In this document: one piece after another, positions 7,204-25,942 of the stretch
Position numbering within the stretch: position 1 is the first letter of the stretch
How the letters are laid out: each line of letters opens with the position of its first letter
IMG/VR virus record: IMGVR_UViG_3300016476_000256
Coordinates: 1-64,000 of that record
Reading direction: 5' to 3' (one strand)
Source of the DNA: a virus
Length of the DNA stretch: 64,000 bases
Made by a program: the position numbers and the translations under genes
Notes under the pieces: generated by a model
Databases searched by the model: none
Told to the model about the DNA's origin: nothing
Seen by the model: the letters and a program-made list of their open reading frames with translations, nothing else

Positions 7204-8033
7204 TTCTTTTTGATTTTATCTTTATTATCATGCAAATAATGCATAATAGCTGTTACTTCATCTTTTAGATATGGTATTTCCATTTGTATTACATCTTTAA
7301 CAATTGGGTCACCATTTTCATCATAGCTTGTTAATGGATAACCATATCTATCTTCTCCATCTGTTTCAAATAGTATATGATGAATAAACATTTTCCCAGG
7401 TTGTAATTTAGGATTATGCTTTAATATCATATACATATAGATACTTAACTGTAAACTGTAATGATTAAAATTACAATCATCTAAGTTAGATACAGGAGAG
7501 AGTAGCTTTTCAGAAACTCCCTCCCAATCTTTGTAAGATTCAGTCTTAATCTCTTTATTAGTTTTGTAATCAATAATGTTTACTTTACCATTAACTACTT
7601 CTACGAGATCTGACTGACCACAGATGCCTGCTGATTTAAGATAAACCATATGCTCTGGATACACGCCTGGTTCTAATTTTTGTGAAGGAGCTATCTTAAT
7701 TCCATTTGCTAAATCATTTGGTTTAAACACTGGAACTGTAACACCTTCTCTTTCTATTGAAGCTAAAGAACATAAGTCAGCTTCTCTTTGATTATGATAG
7801 AATGTTCCAAGAGTAACTGCTCTTTCTGATTCTGCATTCCAAATAGATATAATATCTTTTGGTGAGAAACCATACCACTTAGATCTCTTGTTCTTACAAA
7901 CCTTCTTTGCAATCTTCTCTGCATCAAATGGTTTTTTAAAATGAGATACTAGTGTAGTAACACTTATCCAATTAATCTCTGAGCCATCATTGCTTTTATA
8001 GCTATGATCTTTGGCATTAAATACTATACTCAT
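7200..8033 (-). CDS. PD-(D/E)XK (RecB/Cas4-like) nuclease
   Basis: GQSDLVEV...VNIIDYKTNK gives the D...(D/E)xK core. A downstream QLSIYMY segment matches the QxxxY motif typical of the RecB nuclease family. Confidence 0.65.
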   Translation of the reverse strand: MSIVFNAKDHSYKSNDGSEINWISVTTLVSHFKKPFDAEKIAKKVCKNKRSKWYGFSPKDIISIWNAESERAVTLGTFYHNQREADLCSLASIEREGVTVPVFKPNDLANGIKIAPSQKLEPGVYPEHMVYLKSAGICGQSDLVEVVNGKVNIIDYKTNKEIKTESYKDWEGVSEKLLSPVSNLDDCNFNHYSLQLSIYMYMILKHNPKLQPGKMFIHHILFETDGEDRYGYPLTSYDENGDPIVKDVIQMEIPYLKDEVTAIMHYLHDNKDKIKKK

Positions 8034-8323
8034 AGTTTTTCTAATTCTTGTTCTTGTTCTTCAGTAATTAAAGCATCCCATTTACCTAATGGGCATGAAG
8101 ATGATAATGACCTGGTTTTAAAAGCAAGAGAACATCCACACTCATTACAGCAAGGAGCTGTACCTTTTACTGCACATTTCTTACCTTTGCTAGGACACTC
8201 ATCACAGATGTCATATCTAAGTCTAGATATTTCTTCAACTGTCTCATCTCTAATTACAGAGTTCTTAATTCCTTCAAGAATCTGTGATCTGTTTTGCCAA
8301 ATAAGATTAAGTACGTTCTTCAT
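8030..8323 (-). CDS. Cys-rich putative zinc-binding protein
   Basis: 97 aa with clustered cysteines (CDECPSKGKKCAVKGTAPCCNECGC...SSCPLGKW). ATGA overlap with its neighbour. Confidence 0.6.
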   Translation of the reverse strand: MKNVLNLIWQNRSQILEGIKNSVIRDETVEEISRLRYDICDECPSKGKKCAVKGTAPCCNECGCSLAFKTRSLSSSCPLGKWDALITEEQEQELEKL

Positions 8324-8681
8324 TGTTTTTGGTTTTTAAAAATTCTTCTTTTCTATTATTTACTTGTTCTAACTTAGAGCTTAACTTTAATAATAGCTCC
8401 AGTTTATTTTCCATTGCTTTTTTATTATGGTATGCTTTGAAGGTAGAAGTATCATGATTATCAAGTGATTTAGTTATCTTATCAATTGAACCAGCTACTG
8501 CTTTTGGCTTTGCTACAAACTGACCAAGACCATCTATATTTATTCTTGGATATTCTAGATTAGTAAGTAGCTTTCTAACATCTTTATAATAAAACTCTAC
8601 TAAGTCTTCAACTAAATCTTTTTTAATGTTTAGATCTTCAGATACTACATCATAGATTCTTTTAGCTTTCCTTGGATTCAT
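8307..8681 (-). CDS. hypothetical protein
   Basis: 124-aa ORF in the same-strand operon, overlapping both neighbours. No secure motif. Confidence 0.6.
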   Translation of the reverse strand: MNPRKAKRIYDVVSEDLNIKKDLVEDLVEFYYKDVRKLLTNLEYPRINIDGLGQFVAKPKAVAGSIDKITKSLDNHDTSTFKAYHNKKAMENKLELLLKLSSKLEQVNNRKEEFLKTKNNEERT

Positions 8682-9039
8682 CTCCTAAAAATTTATAATC
8701 TAAAAGAATAGTTCCTTCTGTCTGAATTTTTAAATCTGGATTTAGTTTAATTAACTTTTTGTTAGATGCATCTTTAATTACCAAATTATTTTTCTCAGCT
8801 TTATTTACACTGTTTCTTACAGTCTGCGGAGATTTAAAAATTGGCTCTTCTTCAGAAGATGCATCATAACAAAAGTCTGTTAATTCTATTGGTTCATTAA
8901 AACTTAGTAAAGTCAAGCAATTAAGATCTGAATCACTAAGATTAATTCTCTTAATGTAACAGTGTGTAAGAATCTGAAATTTAACTACATCCCATTTAGG
9001 CATTCTTACTCTTTTCTGTACTTGATTTACTATGGCCAT
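8662..9039 (-). CDS. hypothetical protein
   Basis: 125-aa ORF, tightly packed in the operon. Confidence 0.6.
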   Translation of the reverse strand: MAIVNQVQKRVRMPKWDVVKFQILTHCYIKRINLSDSDLNCLTLLSFNEPIELTDFCYDASSEEEPIFKSPQTVRNSVNKAEKNNLVIKDASNKKLIKLNPDLKIQTEGTILLDYKFLGDESKES

Positions 9040-22741: not shown

Positions 22742-22770
22742 ACACTTAAGAGGCTTTGCCGTCTTTTTTT

Positions 22771-22788
22771 GTACTGTGTTCTACTACT
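22771..22788 (+). promoter_or_regulatory. early promoter-like motif, copy 8 (GTACTGTGTTCTACTACT)
   Basis: Core starts 57 nt upstream of the ATG at 22828. Its flanks are similar to those of copy 9. Confidence 0.55.
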
Positions 22789-22827
22789 ATTGTTGTTTTA
22801 TTTATTAACCCATTAAAATTTATTAAA

Positions 22828-23115
22828 ATGGAAAAAATTGTAAGTGGTATTTTGGTTTCTTGTTCTGACAATTCTAAACCTAATGTTAACGGTACAATGT
22901 ACCATAACTGTACTGTTGAGCACAACGGGGAACAGTACAGTGCTGTTATGTATGCTACTGTGTATGACCGTGGCATTGCTGTTGGTAGCACAGTTAACTT
23001 CAGTGTTAAAGTTACCAATCCTGAAACAGGTGATGTTATATTATCTGTGTTAGGTACAGGTGCTAAACGCGCTACTGCAGGTGCATTTGGCATTGAAATT
23101 CCTGCTACTGTATAG
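22828..23115 (+). CDS. hypothetical early protein
   Basis: 95 aa (MEKIVSGILVSCSDNSKPNVNG...). Start moved from 22756. Confidence 0.6.
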   Translation: MEKIVSGILVSCSDNSKPNVNGTMYHNCTVEHNGEQYSAVMYATVYDRGIAVGSTVNFSVKVTNPETGDVILSVLGTGAKRATAGAFGIEIPATV

Positions 23116-23128
23116 TAGGGTTCAACAA

Positions 23129-23165
23129 ACAGGGTATGTCTACAAAGGCATACTCTGTTTTTTTG
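23129..23165 (+). terminator. strong intrinsic terminator
   Basis: 12-bp stem 23129-23140/23147-23158 (2 G-U pairs), loop TACAAA, then a T-run at 23158-23165. Confidence 0.75.
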
Positions 23166-23436: not shown

Positions 23437-23664
23437 ATGCATAGAGCTACTTACTTCCTATATGGAGTACTATTCAGTCTTATACTATATACTGTGTTTT
23501 ACTCTATAAGAAAGACAGATAGAAAGACTCCGGTCAAAGGTATAGACCGAGAATATTATTTAGAAGTTTCCCAAGATAGTATTTGGGTTGAATCTAGATA
23601 TGGAAAAATTTACAGTGGTAAGTATTCAGACTTAGACAGTCTTATTACCATTGATAACTTGTAA
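23437..23664 (+). CDS. small membrane protein
   Basis: 75 aa with an N-terminal TM helix (YFLYGVLFSLILYTVFYSI). Confidence 0.5.
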   Translation: MHRATYFLYGVLFSLILYTVFYSIRKTDRKTPVKGIDREYYLEVSQDSIWVESRYGKIYSGKYSDLDSLITIDNL

Positions 23665-24412
23665 TTAATTGCAATATAGTTTCTAACAGCCAGTAATGGT
23701 CATCCGAAGGTAGAGCTATAAGTTGAGAAGGATATACTTATCTAGGTATTGCAATTATTTATCCTGAGCATGATATAAAACTGCTCTTATTATTCTAAAA
23801 TTCTAGTTATAATTAACTGGTAATATGACAGCTTAGACAACTGTATTCCTATACTAGATAGGTTCTTATTGCTCACGCTAGTGACTTGCGTGTAATAAAT
23901 TAAGACTGTCTTATGATATATATAGAGTTACCTGGAATATGGTTGCACGGCTTGTTGGTACATCGTGTGTAAAAGAAAACAACCTTCTATGGGATGAAGT
24001 CCTACACCTAAGCAAGTGTTTAAACTGCTTTTATTTACTCTCATCCAAGCAGGATGTATATTCTATGATTGTTTTCCAAAGAATAACATTGGTTATATAT
24101 CTACCCATGACTTATGATGTCCGGAGGGTGTGTATATCAAGGGTTGCAACCTTGTGAGAGTATTATTAATGCACCATTCCTGATTCCCAAGGTCAGGCAG
24201 TTGTAGAAAATATAGCGGGTCTGAATTAACAGACTACATTGCTGAAAGCTGAGAGGTTACTAAAGTACACAGTGTAAAATAAAACACCTCGCTATTAGTA
24301 TATTACAAGTTACTTAATCCTTAAAAGGAAGATAATTGGAATATACACTACAACTGAGTGCAGAGGGGTATTTAACTTATAGAAACTTAATTATTAACTC
24401 AAAACTAAACTT
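23665..24412 (+). other. region without a credible ORF, locally GC-enriched; candidate structured RNA or origin
   Basis: About 750 nt with only one atypical 72-aa ORF. Several local hairpins (24042-24056, 24179-24197, 24219-24234). Long-range complementarities: 23666-23676/23747-23757 (11 bp) and 24198-24206/24348-24356 (9 bp). Bipartite motif TTATGAT-N23-GGTTGCA occurs twice, 201 nt apart. Confidence 0.3.
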
Positions 24413-24715
24413 ATGAAAAAGGTATACATTGTTTTTTTAACATACATTCATGATGTAGATGATTACGATTGTCAACCTAAACCTAGCATAGTAGGTGTTT
24501 ATAGCACCGAAGAACTTGCCAAGCAAAAAATTGCTGATATAGTAAGCTCTACTAAAGAAGAAAAAATTCTTAGTTATGATGAGTATATATCAGAACTTGG
24601 TGATGGTTACGGTGAGATAGACTATAGTAACTACTTGTATGATATGAGAGATACTAGTAGTAGTAGTTATCACTATGAAGAATGGTCAGTACTAGAAAAG
24701 TGGGATGAAAAATAG
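24413..24715 (+). CDS. hypothetical acidic protein
   Basis: 100-aa ORF. First gene after the ORF-free region. Confidence 0.6.
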   Translation: MKKVYIVFLTYIHDVDDYDCQPKPSIVGVYSTEELAKQKIADIVSSTKEEKILSYDEYISELGDGYGEIDYSNYLYDMRDTSSSSYHYEEWSVLEKWDEK

Positions 24716-25850: not shown

Positions 25851-25924
25851 GGTCCTGTAGCTCAGCTGGATAGAGCAACTGCCTTCTAAGCAGTAGGTCT
25901 TTGGTTCGAATCCAAACAGGATCA
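25851..25924 (+). tRNA. tRNA-Arg: tRNA-Arg (anticodon UCU)
   Basis: Cloverleaf folded by hand: acceptor GGTCCTG/CAGGATC (one G-T pair), D arm GCTC/GAGC, anticodon stem ACTGC/GCAGT with loop CTTCTAA, variable loop AGGTC, T arm TTTGG-TTCGAAT-CCAAA, discriminator A. No encoded CCA. Confidence 0.9.
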
Positions 25925-25942
25925 CTATTATTAACTAAACCT

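Follow-up and report, generated by a model that had tools for sequence, protein, structure and literature searches.

What occupies the 748 nucleotides at 23665-24412 of this phage genome, where no credible open reading frame (ORF) is found? The initial annotation had singled out this gap as the longest such stretch in the window (the 64,000-nucleotide stretch of IMG/VR record IMGVR_UViG_3300016476_000256 analysed here), and the next longest are indeed only 395 and 347 nucleotides. The readings it offered were a large structured phage RNA of the GOLLD/ROOL kind, an origin with iteron-like sites, or a decayed gene. Our analysis supports the core of that interpretation, a functional structured RNA rather than coding sequence, and speaks against the GOLLD/ROOL, origin and decayed-gene readings. 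The gap is assembled from short RNA modules on the + strand, a mosaic whose order is repeated in more than 160 freshwater phage contigs, and the 3'-most element is an unannotated variant of the twister ribozyme that is missed by Rfam 15. We consider it likely that the gap holds non-coding + strand RNA cassettes of an early unit, the last of which is a twister ribozyme that processes or insulates the next cistron.

The gap does not encode protein

The DNA polymerase of this phage is at most 36% identical to those of cultured phages, and a search of 50,697 phage records gave no DNA match to the gap, only tRNA matches. A Bacteroidota host is hinted at by the lack of Shine-Dalgarno sequences and by Bacteroidota-labelled MAG contigs, which make up two of nine genome matches.

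The sole ORF of the gap, a 72-aa frame at 23939-24157 on the + strand, had been regarded with suspicion, and it has neither a PHROG match nor protein-level conservation in about 200 related loci. Its tblastn fragments fall only on nucleotide-conserved modules, in frames that differ among relatives; we judge it spurious, and it overlaps module Y, a second M1 hairpin and motif X, all described below. The small ORFs of the gap show no conservation by tblastn among related loci. The gap is non-coding.

The gap had also been described as GC-enriched, which does not hold for the interval as a whole: G+C is 34.0% where the window has 32.8%, and among windows of equal size 30% reach at least the value of the gap. 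The rise is restricted to 24100-24300 (40%), and the count of 27 G+C among the 60 nucleotides of 24121-24180 (45%) is correct. Folding energy is unremarkable across the whole gap (z = -1.9 for the + strand, -2.0 for the - strand) and ranges from z = -1.1 to -3.0 for the individual modules. As these scores are too weak on their own, the case presented here is built on comparative evidence.

The 3'-most cassette is a probable twister-type ribozyme variant

The last cassette of the gap (24164-24370, + strand) is a twister-type ribozyme variant of type P1 with a P5 stem, its elements following in the order P1, U|AA, P2, P4 with loop UUCCCAAGG, P5 and then GAGGG. P1 (24164-24166 with 24368-24370) comprises 3 bp in the window, one wobble included, and P2 (24170-24174 with 24358-24362) comprises 5 bp. 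P4 (24179-24183 with 24193-24197) reads CCUGA-UUCCCAAGG-UCAGG and is extended by U24184.G24192; within its loop L4 (24184-24192, U-UCCCAAG-G), C24186-24188 pair with G24365-24367 in the L4-L1 pseudoknot (T1/PK2), and C24175 pairs with G24191 in a one-pair pseudoknot (T2/PK1). The internal loop between P1 and P2 bears U24167|A24168-A24169, where the bond between U24167 and A24168 is the predicted scissile bond, opposite G24363-A-GGG, of which G24363 is the predicted general base. Stem P5 (24198-24356) has the base helix CAGUUGUAG / CUACAACUG, encloses an insert of 141 nt and closes a three-way junction.

The P5 base is the helix that had been noticed from the sequence as a 9-bp pairing of 24198-24206 with 24348-24356 enclosing further helices; this pairing exists, lengthens to a 16-nt arm pair and is far above chance. 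P2, P4 and P5 all appear in the MFE structure predicted for the full gap. When the window was left out of the training set, the resulting covariance model scored 55.2 bits (E = 3e-13) on 24159-24263 of the window and 15.3 bits on 24272-24375.

P5 ranges from 10 to 312 nt across the family. The 141-nt insert is specific to the window, with no homologue in any locus, and folds alone at z = -3.0. Covariance-model alignment places a degenerate pseudo-copy of the ribozyme 3' half within it, at about 24233-24263. This pseudo-copy is decoy-like and could misfold.

Other readings of the gap were tried against this fold. A group I intron, suggested by a GIY-YIG gene lying in a loop of the copy in locus L034, has neither flanking exons nor a P3-P9 core here, and the helix topology is that of a twister-matching three-way junction. 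For tRNA-like, SRP-like, riboswitch and put/nut-like readings there was no matching consensus or model match.

Covariation supports the fold and its strand

Two blocks, 24137-24205 and 24349-24411, are 94-99% identical where the flanking protein is only 53% identical. Covariation was assessed by counting pair types in a set of 180 unique copies from 166 loci, and P1, P2, P4, P5 and all three pairs of the L4-L1 pseudoknot covary. The third pair of P2 is C-G in 150 of the 180 copies, U-A in 23 and U.G in 6, and the fifth is C-G in 168 and U-A in 8. Each of the five P4 pairs is formed in at least 98% of the copies, with three to four pair types, and the first nine pairs of the P5 base are 90-100% paired with covariation among 126 homologues. 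The short P1 also covaries, being paired at 67.7% compared with 50.2 +/- 1.8% for partner shuffles and 36-44% for slid registers.

The T1 pseudoknot is paired in 175-177 of 180 copies at each position, with compensatory changes at all three of its three pairs (CCA/UGG in 19 copies, CAC/GUG in 12, CCU/AGG in 2 and GCC/GGC in 1), and its A/A is kept in 176. Overall, 92.5% of cells are paired, while shuffles give 81.9 +/- 0.7% (none of 500 as high as the observed value) and slid partners 34-45%. The U.G wobbles seen in P1, P2 and P4 point to the + strand, since read from the opposite strand they would turn into A.C mismatches.

The N-1 position at the predicted cleavage site is U in 177 of 180 copies, and the U and A on either side of the pseudoknot nucleotides of L4 are unchanged in all 180. 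A1, A2 and the general-base G are fixed in these copies by the patterns used to extract them; among sequences aligned without that constraint they are invariant in 35 of 35. Copies that lack GAGGG or L4 do occur (L174, L218 and L002:3040-3130), and these are degenerate.

The variant departs from canonical twisters

The twister models of Rfam 15 (types P1, P3 and P5) report neither the window nor the copy in L014, with its 47-nt P5, nor the minimal copy in L060, scanned as 54 nt, at E <= 10. More broadly, Rfam scans of the window, the gap (E <= 10) and 33 relatives returned no family for the gap. At the gathering threshold the whole window yields a tRNA only, and at E <= 10 the gap yields only chance-level matches to unrelated families; the weak matches to 6S-Flavo, icd-II, snoR8a and mir families in these scans are attributable to chance, with 18-28 bits against gathering scores of 37-99. 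A literature search by sequence strings found no relevant match.

Compared with the described twisters of type P1, with their optional P5 (Roth et al., 2014; RF03160, RF02684, RF03154), the variant has the same order of elements from P1 through G-A-GGG to P1', the same L4 core U-CCC-A-A-G, and the same T1 between the CCC of L4 and the GGG of L1, plus A.A. A short, variable P1 and the association with phage genes and other ribozymes are also common to both. The P4/L4 of the rice twister Osa-1-4 reads CCGG-UCCCAAGC-CCGG (PMC11662667). Twisters are recognised by an 'NA' cleavage site, an A as general acid, a G as general base, 'NC' on the 5' side of PK1 and a complementary PK2, and all of these are found in the window element except the N of 'NC'. 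The stems that a twister needs, P2, P4 and a short P1, are supported in the variant by covariation (130-180 copies).

The differences concern T2, the closing of P4, and the peripheral stems. Twister T2 consists of two pairs, with a conserved 'GC' in L2, whereas the variant can form a single pair, C24175:G24191, which is invariant in 179 of 180 copies. A two-pair PK1 (CC:GG) was considered and rejected: the 5' C instead covaries with the G located 5' of UGCA, extending P2 (U-A in 8 copies), and position 9 of L4 varies independently (G in 162, A in 16) and pairs with U1 of L4. The informative PK1 variants, U-A and G-to-A, came from a metagenome scan; variant scans of IMG/VR gave mostly random matches. 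P4 is closed by an essentially invariant G-C in the canonical twister and by U.G (162 copies) or U-A (16) among the 180 copies of the variant. Finally, 78% of known twisters have P3, which the variant never has, and 1% have P5, which the variant always has, at 10-312 nt.

Twister-sister (RF02681) resembles the variant in its helical connectivity and in the logic of its terminal loop. It cuts the opposite L1 strand and is devoid of Watson-Crick pseudoknots (PMC5408937). Unlike twister-sister, with its C|A cut on the 3' L1 strand, the variant has a T1 established by covariation and the twister-specific CCCAAG and GAGGG, and no Rfam twister-sister match was obtained for the window, L014 or L060 at E <= 10.

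These departures bear on the alternative that weighs most against cleavage, namely a twister-derived fold that has lost this activity and serves as a structural or protein-binding element such as a 5'-UTR stabiliser, decoy or regulator. T2 has been described as the most critical tertiary contact of the twister (PMC5408937), and PK1 imperfections reduce activity in the twisters tested (PMC11662667); here T2/PK1 is down to one pair, the closing G-C is lost, the Rfam models miss the element, and the ever-present and highly variable P5 could be a platform for another role. We nevertheless regard this alternative as unlikely. The active-site residues (A1, A2, the general-base G, A.A and the L4 U and A) are invariant or nearly so, and the active site is kept alongside compensatory change in T1 across 180 copies. 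The three degenerate copies show the look of relaxed selection, and the family co-occurs with hatchet ribozymes, as described below.

Motif X and the modules upstream

Immediately upstream of the ribozyme lies a second conserved structured RNA, motif X (24036-24162, + strand; z = -2.2). It is closed by an 8-bp helix of 24036-24043 (UACUCUCA) with 24155-24162 (UGAGAGUA), within which follow an invariant junction, UCCAAGCAGG, with a mini-hairpin (24044-24054), variable hairpins (24055-24137) and the hairpin CAAGG-GUUGCAA-CCUUG (24138-24154). Both halves of the motif are found in about 62 loci, separated by inserts of 21-175 nt, and the RNAalifold consensus retains the closing helix and the hairpin. 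The closing helix shows compensatory changes (ACUCUUG/CAAGAGU, ACUUCUG/CAGAAGU and UCUCUCA/UGAGAGA), and five loci carry additional hairpins between CCUUGU and GAGAG. Motif X is invariant, tolerates insertions and has compact minimal forms of 45-48 nt; its place is always 5' of the twister-like element, on that element's strand. It has no Rfam match (gap scanned at E <= 10), and a by-eye comparison with the cores of hammerhead, pistol, hatchet, twister-sister, HDV-like and hairpin ribozymes found none that fits. We put motif X forward as a candidate new structured RNA, in the type of neighbourhood that yielded pistol, hatchet and twister-sister.

At the 5' end of the gap, hairpin H1 (23662-23761, + strand) begins directly 3' of the stop codon of a 75-aa gene. 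Its arms (23662-23676 and 23747-23761, with about 70 nt between) contain the 11-bp pairing of 23666-23676 with 23747-23757 that had been picked out by eye, which exists as part of 15-nt arms that are 93% complementary. The helix is retained in the MFE structure (z = -1.5) and is kept at 82-94% only in the close relatives L010-L017. A recombination junction is marked in L010, where a motif-X-like hairpin has its 3' end fused to the 3' arm of H1.

H1 is followed by the M1 hairpin (23766-23786, + strand; GAGCA-UGAUAUAAAAC-UGCUC; z = -2.2), a recurrent 'punctuation' hairpin that was matched in about 27 loci and stands 5' of motif X or the twister in other phages. Its stem occurs as GAGCA/UGCUC, GAGUA/UGCUC, GAGUA/UACUC and AAGCA/UGCUU, of which GAGUA/UGCUC contains a wobble possible on the + strand only. 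A diverged second M1 hairpin (24010-24030, + strand; AAGCA-loop-UGCUU), recovered by repeat search as a copy 76% identical to 23763-23791, directly abuts motif X; M1 is also directly 5' of motif X in L004 and L025.

Between the two M1 copies is module Y (23800-23992, + strand), a multi-hairpin element with CACGC/GCGUG and GGUUG[GCACG..CGUGU]CAACC hairpins. Its energy signal is weak (z = -1.1). In an alignment with five loci (L103, L157, L166, L034 and L138), to which it is 75-79% identical, its hairpins survive sequence change (CUUGCA/UGCAGG to CUUGUA/UACAGG, and CACGC/GCGUG to CACGG/CCGUG), and the innermost hairpin pair changes from G-C to C-G. The bipartite motif of the initial annotation does occur twice, 201 nt apart, as had been claimed; since its two copies lie in different conserved modules, the upstream one in Y and the downstream one in X, this is a partial resemblance and not a true repeat.

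A mosaic of this kind could in principle act at the DNA level. Promoter-stem-loop cassettes shuffle genes in T4-type phages, and the modules might be promoters, operators or recombination cassettes with protein-bound palindromes (GGTTGCAACC, TTGCAA) whose folding as RNA is incidental. The region is mosaic, the window being about 390 nt longer than L010 between two GCAA-type hairpins; modules are shuffled, duplicated and interrupted by genes, a GIY-YIG endonuclease gene being inserted in the L034 copy; and GGTTGCAACC is a perfect DNA palindrome. Such a role would leave unexplained the strand-specific G.U wobbles, the compensatory changes seen both in stems and in a long-range pseudoknot that bridges 10-312 nt of variable sequence, the confinement of insertions to loop and junction positions, and the fixed orientation and order of the modules relative to genes. 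Hairpins of the A1 type retain their stem and lose the central palindrome (AAGGGUAGCAACCUU, AAGGAUCGCAACCUU), and promoter-like matches are at chance level (11 found, 10.1 expected). We therefore consider a DNA-level explanation very improbable.

Equally remote, in our estimation, is one large ornate RNA, GOLLD/ROOL-like or new, spanning about 23665-24412. The gap shares with GOLLD and ROOL a long ORF-free phage region near a tRNA, here tRNA-Arg(TCT) at 25851-25925, 1.4 kb downstream as first noted; it contains several nested complementarities, and its modules, on one strand and in conserved order, may belong to a single primary transcript. Against this stand the lack of any Rfam match to the gap even at E <= 10, whole-region z-scores of only about -2 on either strand, and the absence of conservation, outside the twister and motif X, of the long-range pairings noticed by eye or in the repeat search. 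The gap is modular rather than one conserved fold: its modules are independent, and in relatives they are separate, duplicated or interrupted by other modules, with protein genes between them. That the gap is a replication origin, or a small gene that has decayed or escaped recognition, is scarcely credible: a long non-coding stretch in an early region with the ORF at 23939-24157 would suit it, yet we found no iteron-like repeat families (two-copy short matches only), no AT-rich unwinding block and no shift or inflection in skew, while the ORF has no homologues or family by family search and tblastn, and the RNA motifs it overlaps are conserved by nucleotide, not by codon.

Gene position and the hatchet neighbourhood

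The 3' end of the ribozyme lies 44 nt upstream of the next start codon (ATG at 24413), within the modal position of the family, 30-60 nt 5' of the next start codon on the same strand; only 12 of 130 copies examined fall inside any ORF. The intervening A/U-rich leader, B2 (24371-24412, + strand), carries ATTATTAAC, which occurs 8 times where 2.35 are expected. B2 is conserved in 40-65 loci and is a separate module: it is also found 5' of other early genes, and in L013 and L023 inserted genes split it from the ribozyme.

In 9 of 33 scanned relatives, a hatchet ribozyme (RF02678; 78-83 bits, gathering score 51) is present upstream in the same gap and on the same strand, about 0.9-1.7 kb from the twister-like element. 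The window itself has no hatchet match, either as a whole or in the gap at E <= 10. The hatchet has an unrelated fold and shares with the variant the gap, the strand and a phage-associated 'ribozyme neighbourhood'. In the two relatives with ORFs listed, L025 and L029, the hatchet lies upstream of a small conserved gene of 78 aa, and motif X plus the twister follow downstream of it, so that this cistron has a ribozyme on either side. It is established that self-cleaving ribozymes tend to occur in clusters, close both to one another and to phage genes (PMC10085705, PMC6765202, PMC4604425).

A proposed role in processing the early transcript

The conserved fold, its pseudoknot, its strand, its placement relative to genes and its distribution are established by the comparisons above; transcription, catalysis and an effect on expression are inferred. 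We propose that the gap supplies the non-coding portion of an early transcription unit on the + strand, and that the ribozyme probably cleaves the early transcript shortly before the next gene. In such a transcript P1, P2, P4 and the long P5 would assemble the double-pseudoknot, three-stem twister architecture. By homology to twisters, the 2'-OH of U24167 would attack the adjacent phosphate, with G24363 acting as general base and A24168 as general acid. The upstream product would end in a 2',3'-cyclic phosphate one nucleotide past motif X, and the downstream product would start with a 5'-OH and consist of the folded ribozyme, the 42-nt leader and the gene at 24413. Cleavage may thereby uncouple the downstream cistron from the long stretch of structured RNA ahead of it and give it a defined, structured 5'-OH end, so that the element would serve as a natural 'insulator' or mRNA-processing site. 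Synthetic insulators of the RiboJ type likewise place a self-cleaving ribozyme 30-60 nt 5' of a start codon, although here the role is read only from position. A polycistron-processing role has been proposed for bacterial twister and hammerhead ribozymes (PMC6765202).

A bolder extension, which we hold as a single proposition and consider doubtful, is that the gap is a phage 'ribozyme array' in which motif X, and possibly Y, represent new catalytic or ligand- or protein-responsive RNA classes, and in which hatchet and twister cuts would release a defined RNA with 5'-OH and 2',3'-cyclic-phosphate ends. If so, that RNA would be a substrate for ligation or circularisation by RtcB and, during infection, could function as a free structured RNA. 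The same doubtful reading has a structural side, in which the twister active site would work with a one-pair T2 because an obligatory P5 three-way junction takes its place.

What underlies this clustering of ribozymes around phage genes and around one another is still an open question (PMC6765202, PMC10085705). The locus described here represents a large natural family, with more than 160 contigs, a gene-proximal position, a hatchet partner and a fixed module order, and this makes the hypothesis of mRNA processing or insulation directly testable. Curated covariance models miss this abundant twister variant, and ribozyme censuses of viromes are therefore incomplete. With half a T2 and an obligate P5, the variant is also a natural experiment for asking which tertiary contacts are really needed by the twister active site.

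A structured-RNA array within the early gene block

The window is a low-GC (32.8%) segment of the genome of an uncultured tailed phage, in which structural genes occupy the - strand up to ~20 kb and are followed, on the + strand, by a run of numerous small early genes and then the replication genes. The DNA polymerase of this phage is at most 36% identical to those of cultured phages, and no DNA relatives of the gap were found among 50,697 phage records. Flanked by genes for proteins of 75 aa (23437-23664) and 100 aa (24413-24715), the 748-nt gap is the longest ORF-free stretch of the window, and its lone 72-aa ORF is not credible, having neither a family nor protein-level conservation; on both points, and on the positions of the pairings, the initial annotation was borne out. 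The GC enrichment it described is local (45% in 24121-24180), while the whole gap, at 34.0%, is reached or exceeded by 30% of equal-sized windows. The bipartite motif reported there does occur twice, the two occurrences reflecting a partial resemblance of a module Y hairpin to the 3' portion of motif X. A GOLLD/ROOL-like RNA had been proposed as one option; no Rfam family matched the gap even at E <= 10, and its folding energy is unremarkable (z ~ -2 on both strands). We regard the initial observation as largely right and its interpretation as half right. As judged from comparative sequence analysis, structured-RNA modules make up the gap as an array, and its core, a putative twister-type ribozyme, belongs to a structurally deviant, unannotated family that abounds in freshwater phages.

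A strong intrinsic-terminator-like hairpin at 23127-23160 (a 15-bp stem, then a T-run), right behind ORF 22756-23115, points to a new transcription unit beginning ahead of the 75-aa gene. The tRNA-Arg(TCT) gene at 25851-25925 shares 88-89% identity with the tRNA-Arg genes of cyanophages and is conserved at syntenic positions in L010, L011, L014, L016, L029-L032, L037 and L038, 1-3 kb 3' of the ribozyme array. The sequence ATTATTAAC is present in 8 copies in the window, against 2.35 expected, all on the + strand (23329, 24390, 24736 and 25927; also 11111, 15172, 44821 and 60002). Three of its four early-region copies lie 23-108 nt upstream of a gene start and the fourth immediately behind the tRNA gene. 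The sequence may serve as a promoter or leader element of the phage.

Comparative evidence for the twister-like element

Among 43 IMG/VR loci retrieved via both flanking proteins, three short blocks of the gap (24137-24162, 24163-24205 and 24349-24369) are nearly invariant in those where the flanking protein is just 45-65% identical, and the sequence between them varies in length from 0 to several hundred nucleotides. Stem changes in the middle-block hairpin are fully compensated (CCUGA/UCAGG, CUCAC/GUGAG, UCUAC/GUAGA and others) around the loop UUCCCAAGG, which is invariant. Searched with a degenerate pattern for this block, IMG/VR gave more than 119 contigs among the matches listed, and 185,579 species genomes gave only 9 contigs, all from freshwater MAGs.

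Across 180 unique copies of the element from 166 loci, all five P4 pairs covary, each at least 98% paired, as do two of the five P2 pairs. In 126 homologues, P5 is 90-100% paired across nine pairs. The short P1 is 67.7% paired, far above the 50.2 +/- 1.8% for shuffled partners and 36-44% for slid controls. Each of the three pairs in the L4-L1 pseudoknot shows compensatory changes among the copies that targeted scans for L4 variants recovered (CCA/UGG, 19 copies; CAC/GUG, 12; CCU/AGG, 2; GCC/GGC, 1). In a tool-based count on a 35-sequence alignment, 92.5% of cells were paired, compared with 81.9% in shuffles (0/500 reaching the observed value) and 34-45% with slid partners. The U-A-A of the predicted cleavage site, the G-A facing it and the U..A of L4 vary little or not at all; the A-A and G were held fixed by the extraction patterns of the 180-copy count, and the invariance of both comes from the 35-sequence alignment. 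G.U wobbles identify the + strand as the RNA strand. A covariance model made without the window recovered the window copy in two pieces, as the long P5 insert splits it: 24159-24263 scored 55.2 bits (E = 3e-13), the 3' half 15.3 bits.

Relationship to known twisters

The element (24164-24370, + strand) runs P1, U|AA, UGCAC, C, AUU, P4 (5 bp), U-UCCCAAG-G, P4', P5, A, GUGCA, G-A-GGG, P1', which matches a type-P1 twister with optional P5 in both element order and conserved nucleotides (consensus features: PMC5408937, PMC6154101; recognition criteria: PMC11662667). The P4/L4 of the rice Osa-1-4 twister is CCGG-UCCCAAGC-CCGG (PMC11662667). The element also departs from canonical twisters. Even a minimal 54-nt copy escaped the Rfam twister models. 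Where the canonical T2 pseudoknot has two pairs, the element keeps one invariant C:G; the neighboring C belongs to P2, covarying from C-G to U-A with the G that precedes UGCA. L4 positions 1 and 9 form U.G or U-A in place of an 'essentially invariant' G-C pair. P3, found in 78% of known twisters, is absent from the family, whereas P5, found in 1%, is universal (10-312 nt). Therefore we file the element as a probable deviant form of the twister kind, short of certified family membership.

The window's P5 is 159 nt long, with a 141-nt interior found in the window alone. Within it, 24233-24263 is a degenerate copy of the ribozyme 3' half (CUACAUUGCUGAAAGCUGAGAGGUUACUAA, compared with the genuine CUACAACUGAGUGCAGAGGGGUAUUUAA), which may be a tandem-pair relic or a misfolding decoy.

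A twister-derived fold that has lost catalysis is the sole serious rival to a twister-type ribozyme, and we consider it unlikely. That the conserved blocks are DNA-level regulatory or recombination cassettes is very improbable: the mosaic nature of the region is clear, and the modules may also act as recombination points, but strand-specific wobbles and pseudoknot covariation contradict this explanation. A single large ornate RNA, which we give equally little credence, and an origin or decayed gene, the least probable of all, agree with none of the tests.

Accompanying modules and variation among relatives

Motif X (24036-24162) comprises an 8-bp closing helix (UACUCUCA/UGAGAGUA), an invariant junction (UCCAAGCAGG) and an invariant hairpin (CAAGG-GUUGCAA-CCUUG). 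It is insertion-tolerant, with variable hairpins inserted among the invariant parts. It occurs in ~62 loci with a few compensatory changes, always 5' of the twister-like element, and had no match in Rfam; it may represent a new class of RNA. Module Y (23800-23992), with covarying hairpins, is common to the window and five loci. The M1 hairpin (23766-23786) is present again in diverged form at 24010-24030 and is found elsewhere ahead of motif X or the twister, and hairpin H1 (23662-23761) is restricted to close relatives.

Motif-X-type hairpins (AAGGGUAGCAACCUU) or the entire motif X 3' part lie within P5 inserts at L030:1062-1076 and L176:7548-7575; modules can therefore nest. Conserved sub-modules also recur in P5 inserts (..GAUAGAUGUAUGUAUAUGACACAUACUACCUUG..; L011, L023, L069, L096) and in the interval separating motif X from the twister (L010, L016, L006 and L011, L029, L037, L038), one of them resembling an H-type pseudoknot (GGGUUUGGUCUAUAUCCCUUAAAGACUA) in which GGUCU/AGACU changes to GGUCC/GGACU. 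The L4 loop holds a GIY-YIG homing-endonuclease-like ORF (MKISIYTLTDPNTNKIRYVGQTNDPKRRLSRH...) at L034:3838-4460, where the 3' half of P4/L4 is partially duplicated, and a 140-nt non-coding insert in L016. Tandem copies of the twister-like element are found at L038:7615-7796 and 7985-8118, at L068:9204-9543 (2 nt between copies), and in L111, L164, L053 and L097. The 3' GAGGG is lost in L174 and L218. A divergent relative of the fold at L002:3040-3130 (ACACCAC..GUGGUGU, a UUAG-loop hairpin and an identical P5 base) lacks both the CCCAAG loop and GAGGG, and so appears to be a non-catalytic derivative.

Genomic position and proposed role

The ribozyme ends 44 nt upstream of the ATG of the gene at 24413. 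In the family as a whole, spacing to the following start codon on that strand peaks sharply at 30-60 nt, and the preceding gene lies far back (median 259 nt). Module order and strand are constant: [hatchet], [M1 hairpin], [motif X], [twister]. Of the 33 relatives scanned, 9 have an Rfam-certified hatchet ribozyme (78-83 bits, against a gathering score of 51) in the same gap and on the same strand, 0.9-1.7 kb 5' of the twister-like element (L025:6233-6369, L029:6331-6468, L032:2447-2609, L034:2975-3112, L036:3341-3477, L037:1118-1284, L038:6387-6553, L045:5635-5767 and L055:191-325); the Rfam scan found none in the window. A conserved 78-aa gene separates the hatchet from motif X and the twister in L025 and L029. 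L055 also encodes, at 8424-8820, a tmRNA (62.7 bits) and two tRNAs near its hatchet plus twister-like array.

A transcript-processing role for bacterial and phage ribozymes has been suggested, never demonstrated (PMC6765202). We infer transcription, catalysis and an effect on expression for the twister-like element, and the most economical reading is that hatchet and twister-type ribozymes process a polycistronic early transcript. Cleavage at the predicted site, U24167|A24168, would free an upstream structured RNA ending one nucleotide past motif X, and the downstream cistron would keep a folded leader with a 5'-OH.
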